Shown in pieces: positions 1 to 64,000 of a stretch of DNA of 64,000 bases (its first letter is position 1; every line of letters begins with the position of its first letter). The translations under genes and the position numbers were made by a program. Source of the DNA: Eledone cirrhosa (lineage: Eukaryota); the NCBI GenBank assembly GCA_964016885.1, contig OZ024742.1:290842001-290906000 (forward strand). The letters are read 5' to 3'. Below the pieces are notes generated by a model, which saw only the letters and a program-made list of their open reading frames with translations, searched no databases and was not told the origin of the DNA.

Positions 1-379
1 AGCACTGTCTTAATAACGACCATAGTTAGAAACGATCGTTGGCAGTTACCCTCCCTTGCTTCTGCTGGAATTCGTTAGATGGCGCTATGTCATCAGCTTC
101 CAAAATTCAAAGGTAAAGCCTTCCAAATGTTTATTTGTAGACATAACTACAGTTTAGTGTTCCTCAACCTCACAATTACTTGAAGGAATGGAATGGACCT
201 CTTTTGGTTTCAACAATGATTGTTCCAGTTTTTAATCAATTAATAGTTTGCATGAGAGAAACCCTATAGTTTATGCAGATAAAATAATTTATTTCTAAGA
301 TATATGTACATATGACATATACAATTAAGTGTATGAGTAACTTTGGAGAAATAACAATTGACAAGAACAAAGACTACAG

Positions 380-48661: not shown

Positions 48662-50674
48662 ATGCCACCTAAAAAGAGAAGTCGCCTCAGTCGACATACC
48701 GCGTCAGCAGTGGCGCAAAAGGCTACTATAGCAAACGAGTCCTCTGAGGAAAATGCTTCAAGACTTTCACAGACAGCCTTGCGTTCAGCAGAATGTCGAG
48801 CCGCTGAAAGTTTCCAACAGCGCACCGCACGCCTAGCCAAAATGGCTTCATACCAGGCTTCTTCCAGGGCTTCAGAGAGCCGTGAACAAAGGTCGAAGCG
48901 CCTGGCTAGAAACGATGCGACTAATGCTGCTTCCAGGTCTTTGGAACGTTTAAAACAACGGACGGCTCGCCTTCCTACGAACGCTGCGGCTATGACTACT
49001 TCCATGGCTTCTGAAGATGCAGACGGGCGGTCCATTAGCATTGCAAATGTTGCTTCTGCTATTGCTGCCAGACCTTCCCACCAACCACACGACCAATGTT
49101 CTACGTTCAAGCGTAACAGTCGACGGCGAGAAGCTGCACGTGGTGTGACGAGCCCCAACAGCCCTTACTGGCACCTACGGGCTTTCAAGTATGAGCAAAA
49201 CATTAGTTACTCGATGCGCTCTGACATAAATATAGGCGAGATGCGCTTCAATTGCCAATTCTGCAATGCTACAAAGTGGGCTGGGGAGCCACCTGCAATG
49301 TGCTGCTTAAACGGTAAGGTCACCTTGCCCCCTCTTACGGAACCGCCAGAGCCTTTGAAGGAACTACTGACTGGTTATACCTCAAGGTCAAAAAAAAAAA
49401 CCCTGATCCCCCCAATAAAAAACGCTCCTGGGGGTACCGGAAAAACTTTTGTAACGAATTTGATTCTCGCTAAGAGTCGTCAGGAGAAAAAAGTTGCGTT
49501 GTCCGTTGCATCGTCCGGGATCGCTGTTACTTTGCTGCCGGGAGGCAGGACAGCACATTCAACCTTTAAACTCCCTTTGGATTTAGTAAAAACTGAGACA
49601 CCAACATGCAATATCAGCAAGAGTTCACACAAAGCTCTGGTTCTCAAAAGATGTTGCCTCATTGTTTGGGATGAGTGCACAATGGCACACAACGGTGCCC
49701 TTGAGGCATTGGACAAGGCCCGGAAAGACATTAGGGATTCCTATGGGTGGCGTAACCCTTCTGCTATCAGGGGATTTTCGGAAAATGCTGCCTGTCATCC
49801 CCAAATGGACAAGAGCTGATGAAGTGCGTGCCTGTCTTAAGTCGTCCATGTTGTGGATCCAGGTGAATAGTTTGTACCTGAGCACAAATATACGTGCTCA
49901 TTTGCATGGTGACAACATGTCTGCAGCACAGAACATTTTAGCACTTGGTGAGGGCAAGATCCCTGCGGATGACAAGGGCGGCATAGCAATCGACACCCTG
50001 TGCAACATTGTGAGCAGCCCTTCTGACCTTTGGGAAGCAGTTTTTCCTGTCTCATCTAAATTTAAAAACCTCGATTGGCTCAGCGAAAGAGCCATCCTTG
50101 CTCCGAAAAATACCATGGTTAATTTTATTAACGAGCAGCTGATTGAGAAGATTCCCGGTAAAGAGCACATCTTCAAATCAGACCCCGACGATATCGTTAA
50201 TTATCCGGTTGAGTTATTAAATCTCCTTGAGCCCCCAGGGCTCCCACCTCACATTATTAAGCTTAGGGTTGGCTCTCCCATTATGCTAATAAGGAACTTG
50301 CGTCCATCAAAGCAGTGCAACGGTACTCGCATGGTCGTCAAGTCACTGACACCCACTTGATTGAGGCCACCATTGTAACGGGGTGCGGCAGAGGGGAGAA
50401 TGTTTTCATTCCAAGGATGAACCTTTTCCCCTCGGCGTCAGATATCCCGTTCGATTTCCGGCAATCCCAATTCCCGGTGAGACCATGTTTTGCCATGTCC
50501 ATTAACAAGTCACAAGGGCAAACATTGTCGGTGGCGGGCATCCATTTGGGGGAGCCATGCTTCTCCCATGGCCAACTTTATGTTGCCTGTTCCCGCGCAG
50601 GGAGCAGGAATGGACTTTTTGCTTACTCTCCTCAAGGGATGACACGCAATATCGTCTACAAAGAGGTGCTATAG
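48662..50674 (+). pseudogene. Helitron N-terminus/Zn-finger fused by deletion to a Pif1 (SF1B) helicase
   Basis: CQFCNATKW..CCLNGK, then after about 49390 NAPGGTGKT, IVWDE, LSGDFRK, ILAPKN, CNGTR, FAMSINKSQGQT, HGQLYVACSR and NIVYKEVL. Confidence 0.9.
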
Positions 50675-50991
50675 ATGTTGGTGCAGGTGTTGGAGCTATG
50701 CCATCTGGAACACTATTTGCTGGTAGGGTATCCCATGGCGGACAGATCTGACACCCAGCGGCATCAGGGCCACCATCTTGCAACTTTGGTCTACTAAATT
50801 CGCTATTGGAAGATTATTAACCCATCATTGATTGACCAAAATGCTAATTGGTTCGTAACTTTTAATAACCGGTTCAACTGCTTTATGCACTTAATTGATA
50901 AGCTTATTCGCTTTCAAACCACGTTTACCTGTATGTAACTTTTCATAGCAAATGAACAAACCCGAGCAACGCCGGGCTAAACTGCTAGTTA

Positions 50992-53900
50992 TCTATAAAA
51001 GGCAGATTGTTATTGTGTGTGTGTGTGTGTGTGTGCATGTTCCATGTTTATACATTTGCACAATTTCAAACCGATTTGACTCAAAGTCTGTAAGAATGTT
51101 GTAAATGGTCCAACTTAATTCAACGACTATTTATTTTTTCCCAACTCACACCCAATTACGGAAATAATCGATAAAACTAAATACATGATGCTTAACCCTC
51201 TAATACAATCTGATTTCCTCTCTCTACTCCCCTTAAAAATCGAAAAAATACATACATGCTGTAACTTTCTCTTATATACGCTTAAAACCCCCTCCTTACA
51301 AACTTCCTTTAGGAATGCGGTAGAAAGAAGAGAGAAAGAAATGAAGGAGAAAGAGAGAGAGTGAGAGACAGAGAGAGAGAATGTTTGTTTCTGTGTGTGT
51401 TAGGAACGCAACATTTATTTACTTCAATGACAATGAAGAGAACTTATTACATTTCATACCAAACAACAATTATTCAAAAGAAACAGATAAATTTATTCAA
51501 CAACAAAAAAATAGTGATAAATCTTTTTTTTTAAATCTCTCAACGAACGTGGAAGTTCTTTTTTAAAACATCTCTCAACAAACGTGAGAGAGTGAGAGAG
51601 AACGTTTGTTTTCGAGTGTGGAACGGTCAAACATTTATTTACTTCAATGACAATGAAGAGAACTTATTACATTTCATACCAAACACCAATTATTCAAAAG
51701 CAACAGATATATTTATTCAACAACAAAAAAAATAGCGAAAAATCTTTTTTAAAACATCTTTCATCCAACTCACACTCAATTACATTTTGTGTATAACATA
51801 TTTAAACGTTTATTGATTGAAAAAAAAAACAACGTAGGGATTTTTGACCAAACAACTTCCACTTGCTAACAGAAGCGCACTTTCAACAAACTGTGAGTTA
51901 TTTATTTGCCGTTTGTTCTCCCCTTTTTTTCAACTGCGGAATGCCTCCAGTTTTCCGCCTTATACTTTCAAAGGCAATTTTGCTGTAGAAGTAACCCTTT
52001 CTTTTTCACATAAAATGCCACCTAAAAAGAGAAGTCGCCTCGGTCGCCATACCGCATCAGCGGCGGTGCAGAGGGCGATTACAGCAAACGAGTCCCCCGA
52101 GGAAACTGCTTTAAGACTTTCACAGAGCGCCTTACATTCAGCGGAATGCAGAGCCGCTGAAAGTTTTCAACAACGCACCGCACGCCTAGCCAAGATGGCT
52201 TCATACGACGCCTCGAGACGTGCTGCAATGTGCGATTCAGAGCGGGCAATACGTCATTAAAAAAACACCGCTTCTACTGCTGCTTCCAGGGCTTCAGAGG
52301 GCCCGGAACAAAGGTTGACTCGCCTGGCTAGAAACGCTGCTGCTTCCAGGGCTTCAGAGGGCCCGCAAAAATGGTCGACTCGACTGAATAGAAACGCTGC
52401 TGCTACTGCTGCTTCCAGGGCTTCAGAGGGCCCGGAACAAAGGGCGACTCGACTGACTAGAAACGTTGCGGATACTGCTGCTTCCAGGGCTTTGGAAGGT
52501 TTGGAACGGCGGACGACTCGCCTTGCTAGGAAGGCTGCGGCTATGACTACTTCCATGGCTTCTGAAGATGCAGACGGGCGGTTCATTAGGATTGCAAGGG
52601 TGGCTTCTGCTACTGCTGCGAGAGCTTCCCACGACCCACAGGAGCAATGTTCTACGTTGGAGCGGAACAGTCGACGACAAGAAGCTGACCGCGGTGTGAC
52701 GAGCCCCAACAGCCCATACTGGCACCTACAGGCTTTCAAGTATGAGTCCAACGTTAACTACTCGATGCGCGCCGACATAAATATAGGGCAAATGCGCTTC
52801 AATTGCCAATTCTGCAATGCTAAAAAGTGGGATGGGGAGCCACCTGCAATGTGCTGCTTAAACGGTAAGGTCAGCTTGCCCCCCTCTTGGGGAACCACCA
52901 GAGCCTTTGAAGGAACTACTTACTGGTTCTACCTCAAGGTCATCCAAATTCCTTCAACTCATCAGGAAGTACAATTGTGCGTTTCAAATGACTTCTTTCG
53001 GAGCTAATGTTGTCAGAGAAAGTGGTTGGATGCCTACTTTCAAGGTCCAAGGGCAGGTGTACCATCTTATTGGGTCGCTCCAGCTACTACAAAATTGCAA
53101 GCCTTCGTTCCTTCAAATTTACTTCATTTGTAACTACAGTAGGCAAGTTGATGCGCGGTTTGGCGTTATTCCAACACCTGCAAACACTGACGCTGACACT
53201 TTTGACAGGGACGTGCTGCTCGGTCTTCAAAACATGCTTCATGAGCACAACAGTTATATTCGCAGTTTCAAATACGCCTTGGAAACAACCCCTTCACCAA
53301 ACTTCACCATTGTCATCGATGCTGACAAAAGATCTTCTGGGGAGCACGCATGCCGTTATAACACTCCTTCGTGCAATGAAGTGGCCGTAGTTATCCATGG
53401 TGAACAGCACAATAAGTGAGACATAGTTCTTCAAAGCCGTGACAGTGGTCTTCGACGTATTAATGAGACGTATCGTTCATACGACGCCCTGCAGTATCCC
53501 CTTCTTTTTGCATACGGAGAAGACGGGTACCATTTTGGCATTCCTCAGCGCAAACCAAACGACACCACTGCTGCGACATCTAAAACTGTTTCATGTATGG
53601 CTTTATACTCATATCGCTTCATGACGAGGCCTAACGATTTCAGCACCCTGCACAGGTCACGGGAACTGTTTCACCAGTTTGCAGTTGACATGACCATCTA
53701 ACCCATGCTAGTGTGGAAAATGGACGTTAAATGAAGATGATGATGGCTGCAAAGATGGAGTCGGAGAGACTGTGCTTCATAAAATTGAATCAGAAGTAGC
53801 TGCTCTCAGACTCCTACATCCATTTGCGTGACGGCATCAGGAATGACACTGACCCCCGGAACATCAGCAAAATGTGCATTCTCCCCTCAACCTATATGGA

Positions 53901-55617
53901 GGGGGGGGGGGGGGGGGGCGGTACATGCACGAGCGAACACAGGACGCTATGACGTTCATTCGGCATTATGAGCGCCCCGATTTATTCATCATGTTTACAT
54001 GTAACCCCAAGTGGGTTGAGGTTACACGGAAACTTCTCCCAGGGCAGCAGTACTGCCATCAGCATGATATTATTGCCAGGGTTTTCAGGCAGAAGCTGGC
54101 TAAGCTAATTGATCTAATCAAAAAAGGGCAGGTTTTCAGGCCTGTTAGGTGCCACATGTATACTGTTGAGTGGCAGAAGAGAGGGTTGCCACACGCGCAC
54201 ATTTTGGTTTGGTTGGTCACCAAAATAGACCCTACAGTTCTAGATGACGTCATCGCAGCGGAAATACCGGACCCCGTTGTTGACTGGCAGCTGTACGACA
54301 TTGTGAAGGCACACATGGTGCACGGTCCGTGCGGTGCCGGTTTTCAAGAGTTCTCCTCATACCACAAGGACCATGTGTGCACTAAACGATACCCAAAGAG
54401 GTTCGTTGAGGAGACCCAGACTGGCGGGATCCCCACTGTACAGACGAAGGCGGCCTTAGAACGGTGGATTCACTATGACGTTACGGGGTCATCAAGTTGA
54501 TAATAGGTGGGTGGTCCCGTACTGTCCATTTCTGATGAAAACTTTCAACGCTCATATAAATGTGGAGTTCTGTCATTCAGTGAAGTCAATAAAGTACATA
54601 TGTAAATATGTTAACAAGGGTTCTGACGCTGCCATGTTCGGCCTTCAAAACGACAATAGCAGGGACGAAGTGTCGGAGTACTTGGCAGGTCGATATATCA
54701 GCAGTGGTGAAGCTTTTTGGCAGATATTCGGGTTTCCGCTTGACCAAAGGCACCCCGCCATCATACAACTAGCAGTTCATTTGGAAAGCGGAGAGCAAAC
54801 TTTACTGAACAGACTGCTACTAAATTGGCGGCCAATCTAAAAGAAACAACTTTAACTGGTTTTTTTACGCTTTGCCAACTTGACACATTTGCCGAAACAC
54901 TTTTATATCCTCAAGTCCCGTCCTACTACGTGTGGTCAAACAACACTTGGGTGCGTAGGAAGTCAGGTCAGGATGTTGAAGGACATCCTGGTGTCAAGTT
55001 TGACAGTTGTCTAAGAAGAGTGTACACTGTACTTCCCAACCAGCATGAGTGTTTTCACCTGCGCCTTCTCCATGAGGTTTTTGGCCCACAAAGCTTTTGA
55101 GACATAAGAACTGTTGACGGTGAATTATGTGATACTTTCCAGGAAGCCTATTTTAGGCGTGGCCTTTTGGAGGATGATTCACAATGGGGCGCCACTATGG
55201 CAGAGGGCGTTTTGTTGAAATCTCCTAAACGACTAAGATCGCTTTTCGCTATTCTACTCCTATGGTGCGACTTGGGTGATCCGGCCTCTTTATGGCTTAG
55301 CTACAAAGATTACATGTCTGAAGATTTCCTGCGTCACACTCAGTTGCTAAACCCATCGATGGAGGTCAGATACAGTGACCTCATTTACAACAGGGCGCTG
55401 CTTGAAATCGAAGATACTGTTCTCGATATGGGCGGTAGTGCATTGGCAGTGTATGGCCTACTTTCAACAAACTGGGAAGGCGCAAACACTCTGTCTTCGG
55501 ATTTGCTGCGTGAGACATCTTATAATATTGATGAGCTTGCCCAGTACATAGCGGAGAATGAGCCAAAGCTCCTTCCGGAACAGAAATTCGCTTACAACTC
55601 CGTTGTTTATTCTGTCA
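50992..55617 (+). mobile_element. Helitron copy 2: N-terminus, HelN and Rep, cut off just before the helicase
   Basis: 5' TCTATAAAAGGCAGA; MPPKKRSRL start at 52015; FKVQGQVYH, FTCNPKW, VEWQKRGLPHAHIL, KYICKYVNKG, ENEPKLLPEQ. Confidence 0.92.
53693..53745 (+). mobile_element. Ultra-short RTE 3'-tail insertion in Helitron coding sequence
   Basis: CCATCTAACCCATGCTAGTGTGGAAAATGGACGTTAAATGAAGATGATGATG sits between the codons for VDM and AAKME, with ATG on both sides. Confidence 0.8.
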
Positions 55618-56526
55618 TCTTTGCTTTAATTTCTCGTTTATCCAGTATTTCTTTCTTCTTTTTCCCTTTTGTTTGGGGGAGGGAGGGGGGGGGGTGTTTC
55701 TGTATTAATTTTCCATTCTTTACTTTTACTTCGTACGATCTTTCATGTAGCGTGTATAAGACTTTTCGTTTCGTGGCGGTACCCTTAGAGTTAGCACTAG
55801 TATTTTTTTGCGGGACCCTAAATTATATTCTCATACTAGTTTACTTTCTTGCACTGGGTGGTTGCTGGCACTGTGATTGGGGTAGAAACCTTTATTATTT
55901 CGTGGCAGTCTCTTTAGTATTTTATTCTTCATTATATATATTTTTAAATTTATTTATCTATTCTTTTATTCACGTATTTGTTTATTTATTTATTTATGTA
56001 TTTCTTTAGCCTAGCAATAGCGAGAGACTTAAGTCTTAGTAACCAGACTTAGCTTATTTTTTTTTTTTTTCTCTCTCAGTACTGTTTATAGTTTTAACCT
56101 CCATTGTTCTACTTACCGTTTCGAATTCCTCCCCCTCCCCTCCCCAGTATCCATTTGACCTCACGCCCAGCTGTAGCCGGCACTACCAACGCATGAATGG
56201 GTCTACTCCACCCCCTCTCCCTTTTTCTCCTACCGGCAGGTTTAGCTACCCCTTCCCCCACCAATTTGCCATCACCGATTTACTACTAACTTGTGATGTG
56301 ACCAATCCTGGTGATTGTCTCTCTGACCATATATGGAATTACCCCTTGATAAGCTCGGCTATTTAAATACCAGAATAAATTTTCATTCAGTCCAGAATTA
56401 GCCGTCGAAACAGCTTGAGCTCAGCCGTCGGGGTCTTACTTGTTCCTATTACCCACTCTACTACCCTAAGTATTGAGTACTTTGGTGCGTTATGGTCCAC
56501 CTGGTTCCTTACCACATTTCCTTCGT
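55618..56526 (+). mobile_element. Non-coding, hammerhead-bearing insertion (PLE pseudo-LTR or retrozyme-like)
   Basis: Abruptly replaces Helitron coding sequence, is T-rich, has no recognisable protein and contains a hammerhead at 56341. A second partial copy lies at 63487-63573 (-). Confidence 0.55.
56341..56434 (+). ncRNA. Type I hammerhead ribozyme, U3-A8 core variant with long stem-loop II
   Basis: Stem I ACCCC/GGGGT; core TTGATAA; stem II CGGCTA..TAGCCG; GAAAC; quasi-palindromic stem III CAGCTTGAGCTCAGCCG; canonical GUC triplet at 56427-56429. Confidence 0.72.
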
Positions 56527-56559
56527 TATATATATATATGTATATGTATATATAATTAT

Positions 56560-58035
56560 CATCAACATCATCATCATCGTTTAACGACCATTTTCCACGC
56601 TAGCATGGGTCTGGACGGGAATTGTCCCCCTTGAGGCAAGATTCGTTGTCTTGCTCAGGACTGTCTGGCGGGTATTCTACGGTTGGATACCCTTCCTAAC
56701 GCCAACCACGTTTACAGTGTGGACTGGGAGGTTTTTACCGTGTTACCTACACGGCCACATTACAGCATGGACTGTGTGTTTTTTTGTCATGACACCTACA
56801 CGACCTCATTTATTTAGAACTGGATGTTGTGGTACCAACATAGCTTTACATCGAAAGGGGTGGTGTAGATGGCTGTGGGGGTAGGGTTAGTGGGACGGGG
56901 GTGTATCTTGGTTAAGCGGTGCCTACTGACTGTAGGTTTTGCTTTATACTTAGGCAAGGCGGGTCTTCTGTATTACTACGTAGCGCCAAAGATCTCGGTC
57001 CAGTGACATTGTCTTGGAGAGATGTAAGTGTGTGAGGTCGGATTTTATCAAATCGTCCCAGGTTTTTCTGGGTCTGTCTACTCCGTAGCTACCATCTATT
57101 TTGATCGCCCTGCACTTTTTTATACAGCTATCATCTTTCATGCGCATCACGTGACCATACCAACGTAGTCTTCTCTCGAGTAAACAGCATCTGATCCCTC
57201 TTATTTCTAATTTCTCACTTAGTTCATTTATGCTTTGCCAGTCGCGTATATTGCTATTACACATCCAACGGAGCATGCAAGCTTCGTTCCTCTCCAGTCT
57301 GCGTAGATCCTCTGCACACAAGGCCCATGTCTCACTGCCATGTAACATCGCTGATCGTATGCAGGCATCATCCAGCCTGCCTTTTATTTTTAGAGAGAAA
57401 CCTTTAGCGGCCAATAGTGGTATAAGCTCTCTGAACTTTTTCCATCCCGTTCTGACTCTAGCTACAGTACTTTCGGAGCACCCTCCCCCACTGCTGATTT
57501 TGTCACCCAGGTAACGGAAGGTGGCCACTATTTCTATAGAACCATCTGGGCAATGAAATGAGCTAGTATTCTGTGGGCATTTGCTGCTACTTATTGCACC
57601 AGAGCACCGGCCACATGTGAAATCTATATTCTTAGTTAGCTTACCTGTGATCCCACTACATCTTTTATGCACCCATACTTTGCATTTGGGACATAAAATG
57701 GAGTTTCTGCCTACTCCTTTCCTACACACTGAGCATGGCAATTTCCCAGATGGGACCAGTGCCATATTCTCTTTCCTACATATTAGGACTTTAGTTTTAG
57801 ACAAGTTAACTTTAAGGCATTTTGATTCTAAGCCATGCTTCCATGTTTGGAATTTCTTCTCTAGCTCAGCCATTGATTCGGCTATGAGCGTTAGATCATC
57901 TGCATATAGGAGTTCCCATGGGCAGCCGGTCTTGAACTCCTCTGTTATAGCTTGGAGGGCGATAATAAATAGGAGGGGGCTAAGGACGGAGCCCTGATGA
58001 ACACCAACTTTTCACTATATTCGTTGTTAATTCTA
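56560..58035 (-). mobile_element. 5'-truncated RTE LINE subfamily A
   Basis: ORF 56950-57873 is nearly identical to 1337-2329. (CAT)n tail present. Confidence 0.92.
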
Positions 58036-58204
58036 ATATGTATATGAATGTATATATGTATATATATATATGCATATATATATATGTATATACACACATA
58101 TATATATATATGTATATGTATATATGTATATATGTGTGTATATATGTATATATGTGTATATATATGTATATGTGTATATATATATATATATGTGTGTATA
58201 TATA

Positions 58205-58253
<49 letters not shown>

Positions 58254-58330
58254 ATATATATGTATATGTATATATATGTATATATCTAAATGTGTATATA
58301 TATATATTTATATATATATATGTATATATC

Positions 58331-58370
<40 letters not shown>
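58036..58370. repeat. Long compound (TA)n/(TATG)n microsatellite
   Basis: About 335 bp of TA/TG dinucleotides. Confidence 0.95.
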
Positions 58371-58802
58371 CTAATAAAGATTCAGCGAGAATCACATTTT
58401 CGGCGGGCAGGAAAAGCGAGGCGAAACAAAAAAATCAGAAAGGATACTGGCAAAGTGCTCAATAGTTAAAAACCAGAGCTAAACAATGTTAAGAAGCCAT
58501 ACAAAACTGAAAAGGTGGTCAAGAAAGCATTAACCACCCAAGCCCAAAACCAAATCAAGCTAAACAGGTCAAGACAAAATAAATGATAAAAAATAAGTGA
58601 TATCCAGACCTGGATATATATATATATATATATATATGGACTCCCGGAATTGCTGTTAAAATCCGATGTAGAGTTTCTGTAACACCTAAATCAAAATACA
58701 GTCTGCTTAAAAATATAAGCTTTGTGTATAACGATCGAACAAGGAATATCACGTTATCAACAGGTATTTCGCTCTGTACCAAATAATGTATGTATATATA
58801 TA

Positions 58803-59655
58803 TTGCTAATTTTATGCAAATTTTTTTAACTTCCGTTGTCACTCTTGTCTTCATAAAAACAGTTACTATATTTCCATTATTTATTTTCAGAATAATTGAT
58901 TATGAATAATTTTGAACCTCCAAATTTGTGGAAGAGACACGGAGTTCTTGGAATGCGCGCCAGGAGGACAAATAAGGAAATTTCAGAAACTCACAGAACA
59001 ACAGGTGGCTCGCTGTCTCTTCCAAAGACGTGCCCAGAGTCATGCAGACAAAGTTTCCAGCGACAACATTGGTCTTAGGTGTCGTCAGCAGTCAAGGTGA
59101 TGTCATGCCACCTCACTTCTTCTCTGAGGCCTCAAGCTGAACACCGATGGCTACATCCGCATTCTGAGCAAGGTAGTAAAGCCCTGGATCGACCAGGTAG
59201 CTGCAGGTAGGCCGTACGTGTGGCAGCAAGACTCAGCGCCCTGCCATACCCCTTGAAAGACCTAAGCCTGGCTGTCAGAGAACTTCGTTGACCACACTTC
59301 ACCTGACATCTGACCTCCCAGCTCGCCTGACTGCAACCCCCTCGACTTCTTTGTGTGGGGTGGAGTGGAACGAGACACCAACAGATCTAGCTGCAATACG
59401 AAAGACGATCTGAAGGCCAGGATCACAAGTGCCCTTAGGGGCCTAACTCGGGGGACAGTGACGAAGGCCTGTAGCTGGTTCCGAGGCGGCCTTGAGGCCG
59501 TCATCAAAGCCAATGGCGGGTTTATCGAGTGAGATCGAAAGAACAGGTCATGAAGACAAACTGACCCAAGTTTGATAAATATATCTTAAAAAATAAAACT
59601 ACTGTGTTATTTTTCCTACACAGTAATCTTGCGAACAAATATCATCCGCATCCTG
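58803..59655 (+). mobile_element. Deleted Tc1/mariner element, DD37D (maT) family
   Basis: YVWQQDSAPCHT...PPSSPDCNPLDFFVW has 37 codons between the second and third Asp (with stops) and ends LEAVIKANGGFIE*. Right end CATCCTG|TA; left TIR not found. Confidence 0.85.
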
Positions 59656-59687
59656 TATATGTGTATATATGTATATGTATATAAATG

Positions 59688-59720
<33 letters not shown>

Positions 59721-59732
59721 GTATGTATATCT

Positions 59733-62700
59733 CATCATCATCGTTTAATGTCCATCTTCCACGCTAGCATGGGTTAGACGGGAGTTGTCCCACTTGTGGA
59801 AAGGTTGGTTGGGTGACCATGTCTCGCTCATATAGGACTATCTGGCAGGTTGCCTACGGCTCGATGCCCTTCTTAACACCAACCACATTTACAGTGTGGA
59901 ACTTGGAACTTTTTACCGTGTTTTTTTGTCGTGACACCTACACGATCTCGATCTCATTATCTCATTTATTTGGACTGGATGTTGTGGTACCAACTTTACA
60001 GAGAGAGGGTGGTGTTGGTGGGAGTGGGAGGATAGGGTTGGGGTAGTGGATTGGGGTGTATATATAGTTAAGAGGTGCCTACTGACTGTAGGTTTCGCTT
60101 TGTACATAGGCAAGGCGGGTCTTCTATATTACTGCGTAGCGCCAAAGATCTCGGTCCAGTGACATTGTCTTGGAGAGGTGTAAGTGTGTAACGTCGGAAT
60201 TTATCAAATCGTCCCAGGTTTTTCTGGGTCTACCTACTCCGTAACTACCATCTATTTTCATCGGCCTGCACTTTTTTTATACAGCTGTCGTTTTTCATGC
60301 GCATCACGTGACCATACCAACGTAGTCTTCTCTCAATTAAACAGCATCTGATCCCTCTTATTCCTAATTTCTCACTTAGTTCATTTATGCTTTGCCGTTC
60401 ATGTATATTACTATTACACATCCAACGGAGCATGCATGCTTCATTCATTTGCAGTCTGTGCAGGTCCTCTGCATGTAATGCCCATGTCTCACTGCCATGT
60501 AACATTGCTGTTCGTATACAAGTATCATACAATCTGCCTTTCATTTTCAGAGAGAAACCTTTTGTGGCCAACAGTGGTATAAGCTCTCTGAACTTTTTCC
60601 ATCCCGTTCTGACTCTGGCTACTGTACTTTCAGAACACCCTCCACCACTGCTGATTTCGTCACCCAGGTAACGGAAAGTGTCTACTATTTCTATAGAACC
60701 ATCTGGGCAATAGAAGGAGCTAGTATCCTTTGGACACTTGCTACTTATTGCACCTGACCATTGGCCACATATAAAGTCTACGTTCTTAGATAGCTTACCT
60801 GTGATCCTACTACATCTTTTATGTACCCATACTTTGCATTTGGGACATAAAATGGAATTCTCCCTACTCCTTTCTTACACACCGAGCATGGCCATTTTCC
60901 TTTCTACGAACTAGAACTTTAGTCTTAGACAAGTTAACTTTAAGGCCTTTTGATTCTAGGCCATGCTTCCATGTTTCGAATTTCTTCTTTAGTTCAGCCA
61001 TTGATTCAGCTATGAGCATTAGATCATCTGCGTATAGGAGTTTCCATGGGCAGCCGGTCTTGAACTCCTCTGTTATAGCCTGAAGGGCAATAATAAATAA
61101 GAGGAGGCTAAGGATAGCCTTGATGAACGCCAACTTTTACACTAAATTATTCACAATATTCATTGTTAATTCTAACCTTACTGACTGTTTCTTTATACAT
61201 GGCTTGTATAGCTCTCACAAGCCATTCATCTACACCTAGTTTTATAAGAGCCCACCAGATAATGGACCGGGGGACTCTGTCAAAAGCTTTCTCCAGGTCT
61301 ATAAAAGCTAAGTAGCGGGGTTTACTTTTAGCAAGGTACTTCTCTTGTAGTTGTCGTACAAGGAAAAGAGCGTCTCTGGTACTTTTACCTGACACAAACC
61401 CAAACTGCATTTCATCTAGATCAATTCGCTCTCTGATTGGTTGTGTTATAACTCTTTCTGTGACCTTCATGACCTGGTCAACTAACTTAGTCTATAATTT
61501 CCCCTATCTAGAGCATCCCCTTTACCCTTGTAGCAGTTATGATAACGCTGCTACGCCAGTCTTTCGGTATGACCCCATTCTGTATTACTTGGTTAACTAT
61601 ATGGGTGACCATAGTGTGTCCCACCATATCAGATGCCTTCAACATCTCAGCAACTATCTCCAAAGGCCCAGCTGCCTTGCCTGTCTTCATATCTTTGATT
61701 GCCTTACTTATTATACTACCTTTAACTCGCACCGCTGGTCCTTCTATTGGATCGATTTGGTACAGACTATCTTTTTCCCATTTATTCTCCTCATTTAATA
61801 GTTTCTCGTAGTGACACTTCCAAGCTATCTTCTTATCAGTATCAGTGAGCGCAAGTACACCATTATCATTACGGACACACTTCTCCCCGACAATATCACG
61901 GTTTTCCTTGACACATTGTCTAGCAATCCTGAACAACTCACGTATTTGGTGCTCAAGTTGTAGAACATGCCTGAACTTTCTATCCTCTGCTACCCTTTTT
62001 GCAAGGTACATTTATCTCCTAGCTTCTCTCCTGGCCACTTGATAGTGCTCTCTACTTCCTCCATCCTGCTATACTTTCCAAGCCTGCTTTTTGGCCTTGA
62101 TTGTCTCTTCCACCTTACTGTTCCACCACCAGGTTACTCTCCTCCTGCCAATAGGTCTGCTCCAGCCACAGATTTCATCCGTTGCTTTCAGCAGGTTCAC
62201 TTTCAAGAATTGCCACTGTTCCTCTATATCACGTCTCTAATTGCTTTTCCTTATTGTCAAAGGCATCAAGTAATAAGCTTTTAAATTTGTCACTGGCTAT
62301 GGGGTCCTTCAACTTCCATATTCTTCTCCTCAAGGTAGGCCTCCTCTGTCATCGAGTACGTCTAATCCTGACTATGAGGCCACTAACTACTAGGCTATGT
62401 TGGGAGGTGCATTCTTCACGGGGGAGGGATGTAGTGTTTACAACAGACATTTTGTCCCGTCTTCTAGTAAGGATATAATCTATCTGGCTGGCGTGTTCCC
62501 CTGATCTATAGGTGATCAAGTGGTTTTCACGTTTTTTGAAGTTTGTGTTACAGATAGTTAGGCCATTTGCGTCACAGAATTCCAGGATTCTCAAGCCCTC
62601 CTCATTTCTATTTCCAACTCCATAGCGCCCATGGACTCCATCATAGCCATCACTATGTTGTCCAACGTGACTGTTTAGATCGCCAGCAATAATCAAATAG

Positions 62701-63053
62701 TCACTGTCGGTTATTTGGGAGGTAGTGTGCATTAGCATCTCATAGAACCTGTCCTTTATAACATCAGGTAGACCAGATTGGGGTGCATAAGCAGATATTA
62801 TTGTCACAGTAGTTCTATTTAGAACTAGTCTTAATTCAATTATTCTGTCATTCACTCTATTTACGTCAATTACCTTATCTACCCATTTTTCAACTAACAT
62901 AATTCCTACACCACCCTGTCCGTTGTCATTTCCCACCCAGAAAAGTTTATAGCATCGTTTTTTACCCACGATGAGTCTGGCAGACCCCCTCTCCACCTAG
63001 TCTCTTGAATACAACAAACATCAACTTCTTTACGTTCAAGCATCTCTACAACC
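59733..63053 (-). mobile_element. RTE LINE subfamily A, nearly full length and degenerate
   Basis: APE in 62349-62996, RT pieces in 61508-62011, 61147-61470, 60864-61133 and 60245-60571, (CAT)n tail. Confidence 0.93.
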
Positions 63054-63135
63054 TGATATATATATGCATATATACATATACATATACATATAATATATAT
63101 ACATATTTACACACATATATATATGTATATGTATA

Positions 63136-63487
63136 TCATCATCACCGTTTTACGTCCGTTCTTCCACGCTAGCATGGGTTAGACGGGTTGTCCTGTTGTG
63201 GGCAGTGTCTAGTCGGCTGACCATGCCTTGTTCATATGGGAAGTGATTCTGGCTTTATTTCTACAGCTCGATGCCCTTCCTAACACCAGCCTCATTTACA
63301 GTGAGTGCTGGGTGCTTTTTTTCCGTGGTGCCTACACATCCACTTTACAGTGTGGGCTGGGTGCTTTTTTGCTGTGGCACCTCCACGACCACTTTACAGT
63401 GGGAGGGTGTGGGGGCATATTGTCTATATGCTTCAGCTTCAGCTTGTACCATGGGAGGTCGGGTCTTTTTTTATTATTGTGTGACGC
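63136..63487 (-). mobile_element. 3' UTR fragment of RTE subfamily B
   Basis: Collinear with 43398-43745. Confidence 0.88.
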
Positions 63488-63608
63488 AATACTTAGGGTA
63501 GTAGAGTGGGTAATAGGAAAATGTTTAACCCCGACGGCAGAGCTCAAGCTGTTTTGACGGCTATTTCTGGACTCAGAAATAGCCGTTGATGGTTAAACAT
63601 TTTCCTAT
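63487..63608 (-). mobile_element. Truncated, folded-back second copy of the 56.3-kb hammerhead element
   Basis: Reverse complement AGTCCAGAAATAGCCGTCAAAACAGCTTGAGCTCTGCCGTCGGGGT..TTCCTATTACCCACTCTACTACCCTAAGTATTG matches 56389-56475. 63574-63608 is an inverted partial copy. Confidence 0.8.
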
Positions 63609-64000
63609 ATATATATATCAGGGGTGGAGAGTCCGTGCATGCAATGCATGCAGTGTATGTGTTATAGAATCTTGAGCTGATCAATTGCGTCGGTTGAAGC
63701 CAGCAGAATTTTGGTTGCTTACTAAAACATATAGACACAAAAAAAGATAACACACACACACACACACACATACACACAAACACACGACAGCTTTGGGGCA
63801 AGCAGAATTTTGACTGCTTACTAAATCCTAGACACATAAAAAGATAACACACACACACTAGATAACACTACATGCGGCTTTGACCGGGAGGGTCATTTAG
63901 AGAGAATTTTTTTTTTGGAGGGGGGGGGGAGGTAAAGCTGCACAGCCCCACTTTCCACCATGGCGATTGCACTGCATGCCCTGCTTTCCAGGTTACCCTT

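Follow-up and report, generated by a model that had tools for sequence, protein, structure and literature searches.

A U3-A8 hammerhead ribozyme in the pseudo-LTR of a Hydra-clade Penelope-like element of Eledone cirrhosa, with a likely transcription start in loop II and likely junction traces of cleavage

The window analyzed here, a 64,000-nucleotide stretch of the Eledone cirrhosa genome (contig OZ024742.1, positions 290,842,001 to 290,906,000, forward strand; coordinates below are those of the window), contains a hammerhead ribozyme with a non-canonical core inside a short insertion. An initial annotation, made from the letters alone, had assigned the insertion to a non-coding family, retrozyme-like or dependent on a Penelope-like element (PLE). 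The locus raises the question of which element carries this ribozyme, and whether the ribozyme cuts RNA in vivo.

A complete type I hammerhead with a UUGAUAA core, as the initial annotation had proposed, could be located on the plus strand at 56341–56434, and its stems, core, GAAA and GUC site were all found. Stem I is formed by ACCCC (56341–56345) and GGGGT (56430–56434), with a predicted distal stem I beyond it (56335–56339 with 56442–56446). The core strand, TTGATAA in the DNA, occupies 56346–56352, with U3 at 56346 and A8 at 56351. Stem II starts with G10.1 (56353) paired to C11.1 (56406), followed by a 2x1 internal loop and a 6-bp stem II, which is closed by an unusually long loop II of ~37 nt; GAA follows at 56407–56409. 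Stem III (56410–56415 with 56423–56428) surrounds a GAGCTC palindrome, and the predicted cleavage site lies between C17 (56429) and G1.1 (56430), where, as described below, both arms of some head-to-head genomic junctions end at G1.1. The features of a type I core, i.e., U4 G5 A6 A9, G12 A13 A14, A15.1-U16.1, H17, and G10.1-C11.1, are present.

An Rfam scan of positions 50000–64000 missed the window copy and reported no hammerhead, only microsatellite noise, and the folding z-score of the hammerhead fragment was −0.54. In contrast to a reversed control, which gave no match, a core-plus-GAAAC pattern that allowed U3-A8, a search suggested by the initial annotation, gave 4751 exact matches in the genome, and a chance origin is therefore excluded. 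The window copy carries a private, CpG-type G>A change at 56412 (plus strand) that breaks one stem III pair; the position is G in 28 of the 29 other top loci and T in one. Stem III of the window copy is thus imperfect, and its active fold lies 4.5 kcal/mol above the predicted minimum, while in a family-type copy the difference is 2.4 kcal/mol. The window copy is probably inert.

The presence of a ~0.9-kb insertion truncating a Helitron was borne out. A decayed Helitron Rep region (51838–55615, plus strand), with a Helitron_like_N match at 53853–54497, forms the host context and is cut off by the insertion, which spans approximately 55616–56526. The interrupted Helitron seems not to resume afterwards, since its helicase piece has no match to the right of 56500. 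Farther upstream, 49590–50674 holds a C-terminal piece of a Helitron helicase and 48857–49390 a partially duplicated Rep N-terminus, and a 50-bp piece of the 3' end of an RTE-type LINE lies at 53694–53745, inside the Helitron. Many copies of this LINE, recognized by RT and PHD matches, fill the window at 56560–58045, at 59696–63049 (minus strand), and in several other places; the PLE pseudo-LTR (pLTR) at 56389 is directed antisense into one of them. The 3' ends of the flanking LINEs resemble repeats of octopod genomes.

The insertion itself (55616–56526, plus strand) is a 5'-truncated PLE copy that consists of the distal 3' UTR and the pLTR, lacks an ORF, has an internal deletion of ~115 nt near 55920, and is 93% identical to a 3631-bp unit, L031 (C3:245776500-245785500). 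Other copies reach >1.5 kb farther upstream, into an RT/GIY-YIG ORF. L031 holds a full unit of 3.63 kb, its two cores being separated by 3631 bp, and the YRDD and VIY..YIG motifs of its frame point to a single ORF coding for RT and, at the C-terminus, a GIY-YIG endonuclease. Three loci run from the pLTR straight into the next ORF start. In a search of the species' own genome, 40 of the 2332 candidates were scored, and almost all of these were 99% identical. Homologues of the ORF numbered 419 at E ≤ 1e-20 among 7999 candidates scored, with few named among the best 120 of 419 listed; Pfam gave no match for the two ORF copies searched. The architecture of PLEs is present, including partial tandems that form pLTRs, an inverted 5'-truncated arm, and an optional tail. 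Thus, the statement that coding content is lacking holds for 55616–56526 itself and fails for the unit, the piece being the 3' UTR and pLTR of a coding element. Likewise, the suggestion of a PLE pLTR hammerhead in the initial annotation was supported, and that of a non-coding, retrozyme-like or PLE-dependent family was not, since the insertion is a truncated copy of an autonomous coding element. The L031 unit, which carries RT and GIY-YIG and is colinear with the window piece, represents the autonomous element.

The Hydra clade of PLEs is defined by DKT, by CxCX5C, by CxxC and CxH around E and N, by the lack of CCHH, and by (TA)n targets (PMC8557442, section 11). L031 has DKT (for DKG), CNLC (CxxC) and CKH (CxH), and CCHH is absent; the CxCX5C linker reads CNCPDRSSC in L032 and L034–L037, and is mutated in L031 and L038. 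A (TA)n tract is found at the 3' end in 26 of the 30 top loci, three others continuing into the next ORF and one first repeating the tail end; in the window, the target tract occupies 56527–56554, 3' of the insertion. Judging from these motifs and from (TA)n targeting, the carrier is a 5'-truncated 3' end of an autonomous EN+ PLE of the Hydra clade. According to the part of PMC8557442 that deals with Hydra-clade elements such as Hydra-1_Obim (Craig et al. 2021), these are alike in their single ORF with RT and GIY-YIG, their motifs, (TA)n, and 3' hammerhead, but the members described are generally <3 kb and have RWK, whereas here the unit is 3.63 kb long, with a 1.2-kb 3' UTR and RWR in place of RWK. 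The leader of L038 has a deduced 5' UTR of 225 nt, with one upstream ATG ahead of the ORF. At L031, L032 and L036, more divergent other PLE ORFs adjoin copies of the family, and (TA)n targets are probably common to both.

A PLE tail of ~78 nt (56449–56526, plus strand) lies between two RT start points; inverted arms end at ~56449 and direct arms at ~56526, and the tail was absent from all 63 of the 63 inverted arms called. The claim that the 3' half of the ribozyme recurs on the minus strand at 63487–63573 proved right, and the second copy belongs to an older subfamily. It contains the 3' half of the ribozyme only, starts at the equivalent of A56389 with a G before it, and has a truncated tail. 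Without a core strand, it is a short fold-back, joined head to head with an inverted, tail-less arm (63574–63607, plus strand) that has an internal deletion and is followed by (TA)n. A perfect stem II in the second copy was considered and rejected, the sequence being the inverted duplication.

These data bear on the first reading of the locus, i.e., a non-autonomous, retrozyme-like family that forms circular RNA and borrows the enzyme of a PLE. The 3' half of the ribozyme has 41231 matches, which mostly lie in short copies lacking coding content; according to the portion of the retrozyme preprint that concerns their origin, retrozymes descend from pLTRs of PLEs; and the palindromic stem III favors a dimer, with a predicted energy of −69.1 vs. 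2 × −27.9 kcal/mol. Yet colinearity with the 3' end of a coding element contradicts this reading for the window copy, direct core repeats are ~3.1–3.6 kb apart in the tandem loci examined, and the core strand is missing from most of the short copies (11 of 100 retain it), the junctions of which are individual. Neither head-to-tail arrays of short units nor short tandem arrays of whole ribozymes were seen among the loci examined. Non-LTR retrozymes are short non-coding tandem units, each with a whole hammerhead, while the unit here is 3.6 kb long and coding. We consider a retrozyme-like origin very improbable.

Conservation of the fold was evaluated using 35 copies chosen across the stages of the family. 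Stem covariation among copies, on which the initial annotation had staked its reading, was evident: 87.9% of stem cells were pairing, compared with 27–49% in slid controls, and two-sided changes had occurred in 4 of 10 stem II pairs and in the 3-8 pair, with little of this kind in stem I (1 of 5 pairs) and nothing in stem III. In a shuffle test, two of five measures were not exceeded. Conservation of the core and of pairing, together with the tree order described below, indicates that the fold is under selection, and that for a long and successful period the element could do without the 3-8 pair. Only 1 of the 35 copies has the active fold as its predicted minimum, and G10.1-C11.1 is an isolated pair. 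Old subfamilies (e.g., L162 and L191) have an extra inner hairpin in loop II, which decayed to AT-rich sequence in young ones, and the A9-to-G12 distance is constant at ~50–56 nt across old and young subfamilies. In many subfamilies, AGU in loop II (columns 60–62 of alignment A1) is complementary to a conserved ACU (~109–112) in the 3' bulge of stem I; the two could form a tertiary contact besides, or instead of, the Initiator function of the former discussed below.

The state of the 3-8 core pair was determined from exact matches to one pattern frame. In younger subfamilies, U3-A8 was found 4751 times, C3·A8 1408 times, U3·G8 31 times, and C3-G8 seven times, with no matches in reversed controls; a Watson–Crick 3-8 pair is present in the window and in the 4751 U-A copies, and absent in the 1408 C3·A8 copies. 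When the core was left open, a by-eye count of the first 100 of 5992 matches gave U4 in 100, G5 in 99, and A6, A8 and A9 in 100 each, while N7 varied (71 G, 13 U, 11 A, and 5 C) and position 3 was U in 75 and C in 25. U3-A8 is thus a state of the family and not decay of one copy. The canonical CUGAnGA (C3-G8) occurs in older subfamilies, which were found by patterns requiring part of the core. The seven C3-G8 copies of young subfamilies were rejected as covariation, since they sit inside the C3·A8 grade and ca. nine (9.2) such copies would arise through A>G decay of C3·A8. A search for a canonical relative with a short loop gave 477 matches, and the 100 of them listed were junction or deletion products.

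A pLTR tree was built from 107 of 130 copies, with positions 3 and 8 masked, a midpoint root, and window-type copies (L001–L038) limited to eight; the long-branched L124 was left out of the stage summary. The tree is a ladder along which median end branches fall from 0.26 to 0.01, and, given the midpoint root, it suggests a succession of 3:8 states that began with C-G and went on to U-A, then U·G, back to U-A, then C·A, and finally U-A again. The younger steps recur in a tree of the ORF only, made from 25 copies whose ORF end is colinear and to which the two oldest stages contributed no copy. The double compensatory change seen in the core by the initial annotation thus holds in deep time, the oldest subfamilies being C3-G8; recently it does not, the window pair apparently resulting from one C3>U change in the C3·A8 grade. 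The 3:8 pair would tune cleavage; for transposition it would be inessential, given a C·A grade that was amplified to at least 1408 copies.

In itself, a U3-A8 core is ordinary and has already been published for PLE hammerheads. Natural U3-A8 hammerheads were described by Perreault et al. (2011, PMC3088659), and U3-A8 is likewise described in the relevant parts of PMC4209133. The closest counterparts in this respect are the minimal hammerheads of Cercyon PLEs in Schistosoma mansoni (Cervera and De la Pena 2014, in the parts of PMC4209133 concerned), which share U3-A8 covariation, the position in the pLTR, a long stem II, a short stem I, and a palindromic helix III; unlike the minimal Cercyon U3-A8 forms, the ribozyme described here can close helix III as a monomer. 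Among Hydra-clade elements, 26 of the 26 Hydra rows of File S2 of PMC8557442 have CUGAnGA, a loop 2 of 3–10 nt and a short stem III, whereas this family has U3-A8 or C3·A8, a loop II of ~37 nt and a stem III of 5–6 bp. The ordered U·G and C·A series found here, and the start inside loop II described next, were not found in the passages on U3-A8 hammerheads of PMC4209133 and PMC3088659.

The 41231 genomic matches to the 3' half compare with 6197 whole cores, and ~85% of the 3'-half matches are without a matching core. The 5' ends were mapped relative to G12 in all 100 tail-bearing copies listed of 34954 matches, an unbiased set. As many as 61 fell at −22..−12, one at −60..−23, seven at −11..−1, nine at 0..19, six at 20..26, and three beyond; 11 copies had the whole core and two were uncalled. 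The density of ends was 0.12 per nt in the peak, an 11-nt segment inside loop II, vs. 0.002–0.008 elsewhere. The same peak holds 27 of 38 ends in copies fetched after the idea of a start site arose, and 45 of 63 inverted arms end in it. It coincides with two overlapping motifs at 56383–56392 (plus strand), with putative starts at A56389 (the main one, −18) and A56385 (−22). The AG of loop II is invariant in 35 of 35 aligned copies, and no search pattern used for old subfamilies demanded it. Both motifs are Initiator-like, as judged from the Inr consensus.

The bases at the junctions were informative in the same respect. Head-to-head spacers of one base at −18, in which G is indistinguishable from C, were G:C in 45 of 50 cases in a subfamily with 197 junctions per strand, while the templated base at −19 was T in 100 of the 100 copies listed of that subfamily. 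In old subfamilies, the one-base spacers were G:C in 17 of 20 cases, but C can be templated there. When spacers of any length were counted, the base before the A was an untemplated G in 15 arms of 100 and an untemplated A in six. An extra G marks capped full-length L1 insertions, according to the relevant part of PMC11702581. The wall of 5' ends and the untemplated G:C, as expected of a cap trace, suggest that the mRNA likely starts inside the ribozyme and carries its 3' half only. A possible start at −22 agrees with the one-base spacers there, which are G:C in 11 of 12 junctions, although C belongs to the template at that position in several subfamilies. We assign no promoter role to TATTTAA at 56360, which is TATA-like but lacks conservation in old subfamilies, or to a DPE, of which no match was seen. 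Taken together, the ends make it likely that transcription starts inside loop II, and that the short copies are run-off cDNAs.

An alternative explanation for the conserved AG is a 3' splice acceptor, so that splicing would take out the ribozyme's 5' half. The AG is preceded by a run of pyrimidines, and introns in the 5' UTR of PLEs are known, including one that reshapes the hammerhead of D. virilis Penelope (as reported in sections of PMC4209133, PMC2377424 and PMC8557442). The short copies, however, contain the AG itself and are not joined to a common upstream exon, and splicing would not be expected to place an extra G:C ahead of the A. We consider this explanation improbable. Contigs of runs X4 and X1 that cover the element show no GT..AG joint; contigs show neither ends nor levels and were unused as evidence.

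Whether RNA is cut at the predicted bond was judged from head-to-head junctions; the classes of these, and of the start-site junctions above, were assigned by visual inspection of each list down to the 50th locus or the 100th row. The young U3-A8 set gave 49 distinct short junctions (612 per strand; control, 35). In 14 of the 49, both arms end at G1.1, with 1–6 untemplated bases, and thus omit C17 exactly; seven were ambiguous within one base, seven had one arm at G1.1, six and 13 fell into microhomology classes, and two were other. The cut after 56429 predicted by the initial annotation thus coincides with the ends of genomic junctions at G1.1. One-base spacers at the cut site were A:T in seven of seven cases, which differs from the G:C at the position of the start (p = 3e-6). 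Cut-type junctions accounted for 12 of 50 in an older U3-A8 group. In two mostly C3·A8 groups (17 of 22 and 8 of 11 copies), they accounted for 9 of 50 and for 6 of 50, and six and four of these, respectively, had both arms ending at the cut. When pooled, cut-type junctions made up 40 of 99 in U3-A8 groups and 15 of 100 in mostly C3·A8 groups (p = 7e-5), and junctions with both arms at the cut 14 of 49 in young U-A copies vs. 10 of 100 in mostly C·A ones. The cut index per copy was ~8.0 and 6.9 for U3-A8 vs. 3.1 and 3.3 for C3·A8, a ~2.5-fold difference in which two of the values rest on two and five copies. An age-matched comparison of cut to palindrome junctions (12:23 in older U3-A8 vs. 6:31 in older C3·A8) did not reach significance (p = 0.10), and there was a difference between the young and the old U3-A8 group as well (p = 0.005); the 3:8 pair is therefore not the sole factor in the frequency of cut-type junctions. 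The junctions at the cut site are likely an indirect trace of cleavage in vivo.

The main rival to a footprint of cutting is stalling or trimming at the base of stem III: in the same PLE, ends would pile up where RT stalls, or nucleases trim, at the bases of hairpins (stem III and loop II), the hammerhead being a slow or dead relic. The cut site is 1 nt off the base of stem III, the C·A core was amplified to 1408 copies, cut-type ends persist in C·A groups, and the active fold is seldom the minimum (1 of 35 copies), as this explanation would have it. Metazoan PLE hammerheads are weak in vitro (PMC4209133, in the part on their activity), and the sections on RNA ends and in vitro assays of the anole PLE study report no reads at the cut and cleavage unneeded in vitro (PMC11167929). 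Stalling does not readily account for the 14 of 49 junctions in which both arms omit C17 exactly, nor for a frequency that differs between groups sharing stem III (28:13 vs. 9:32, p = 5e-5). Moreover, loop II of young subfamilies is weakly structured and yet has a sharp wall with another untemplated base (G:C vs. A:T), and the core positions are fixed while N7 drifts. On balance, we regard a purely structural origin of the ends as unlikely.

Our preferred reading, which we hold to be probable, is therefore that the ribozyme is the pLTR hammerhead of a 5'-truncated autonomous Hydra-clade PLE, that a capped mRNA likely starts in loop II, and that in vivo the ribozyme, where complete, likely cleaves a minor share of the transcripts after C17. 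Pol II would start at A56389 and, less often, at A56385. As the leader has only GAAA, stem III, and the cut site, it cannot remove its own cap as a monomer; the whole ribozyme would exist only in the 3' pLTR or in read-through RNA, and would separate units from tandem or host transcripts. RT would be primed on nicked (TA)n both at the tail end and at an internal site, which would account for arms with and without a tail. When primed on the 5' leader, it would run off at the cap after ~60–140 nt and add C, giving rise to tens of thousands of short fold-back copies, while on a cut template it would run off at G1.1. A few percent of the templates may be cut (6 of 100 ends lie within 20..26), possibly via the palindromic helix III, most remaining uncut, and the 3:8 pair would tune cleavage.

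A bolder version, to which we give slightly less than an even chance, is that the ribozyme is split by its own transcription start. The capped mRNA would then be the substrate half, guarded until a 3' pLTR or read-through RNA brings the enzyme half via the palindromic helix III, and the hundreds of junctions would record both the cap site and in vivo cleavage, lower under C·A and higher after the return to U-A.

Parts of this scheme have counterparts elsewhere. Poseidon PAc of Anolis (Frangieh et al. 2024, PMC11167929, in the parts on RT priming and ribozyme position) likewise has two RT start points that define a tail, AT-rich targets, and uncleaved RNA as the main template; its ribozyme overlaps the ORF start and it has no RNA ends at the cut, whereas here the ribozyme precedes the ATG by ~200 nt and there are genomic copies whose ends lie at the cut. 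Promoters that have an Inr within the pLTR have been described for PLEs, in portions of PMC2377424 and PMC3846280. The arrangement proposed here, with a promoter and Initiator within the terminal repeat, is also that of D. virilis Penelope (Schostak et al. 2008, PMC2377424) and of the plant retrozyme NbRZ1 (PMC12029980), but their start lies upstream of the ribozyme, and NbRZ1 cuts off its own 5' end, while here the start would lie inside. No earlier account of a PLE hammerhead with an internal start, or of cut-site junctions, turned up in a literature search that had most subscription papers outside its reach. The proposed loop II start site, the cut-site junctions, and the excursion through C·A, all deduced from genomic DNA, are likely new.

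The function of PLE hammerheads is called “still unclear” in the discussion of them in PMC8557442, and relevant passages of that paper and of PMC11167929 state that in vivo cutting by these ribozymes, and its purpose, are unresolved. If our reading of the junctions is true, DNA by itself locates the start site and shows that the predicted bond is cleaved, and the unusual length of loop II and the mass of short fold-back copies are explained. For kinetic work, the family offers one ribozyme in natural versions with C-G, U·G, U-A, or C·A. Under the bolder version above, the junctions would amount to a fossil assay of in vivo activity across the evolution of one PLE hammerhead, and the same reading would be applicable to any PLE-rich genome.
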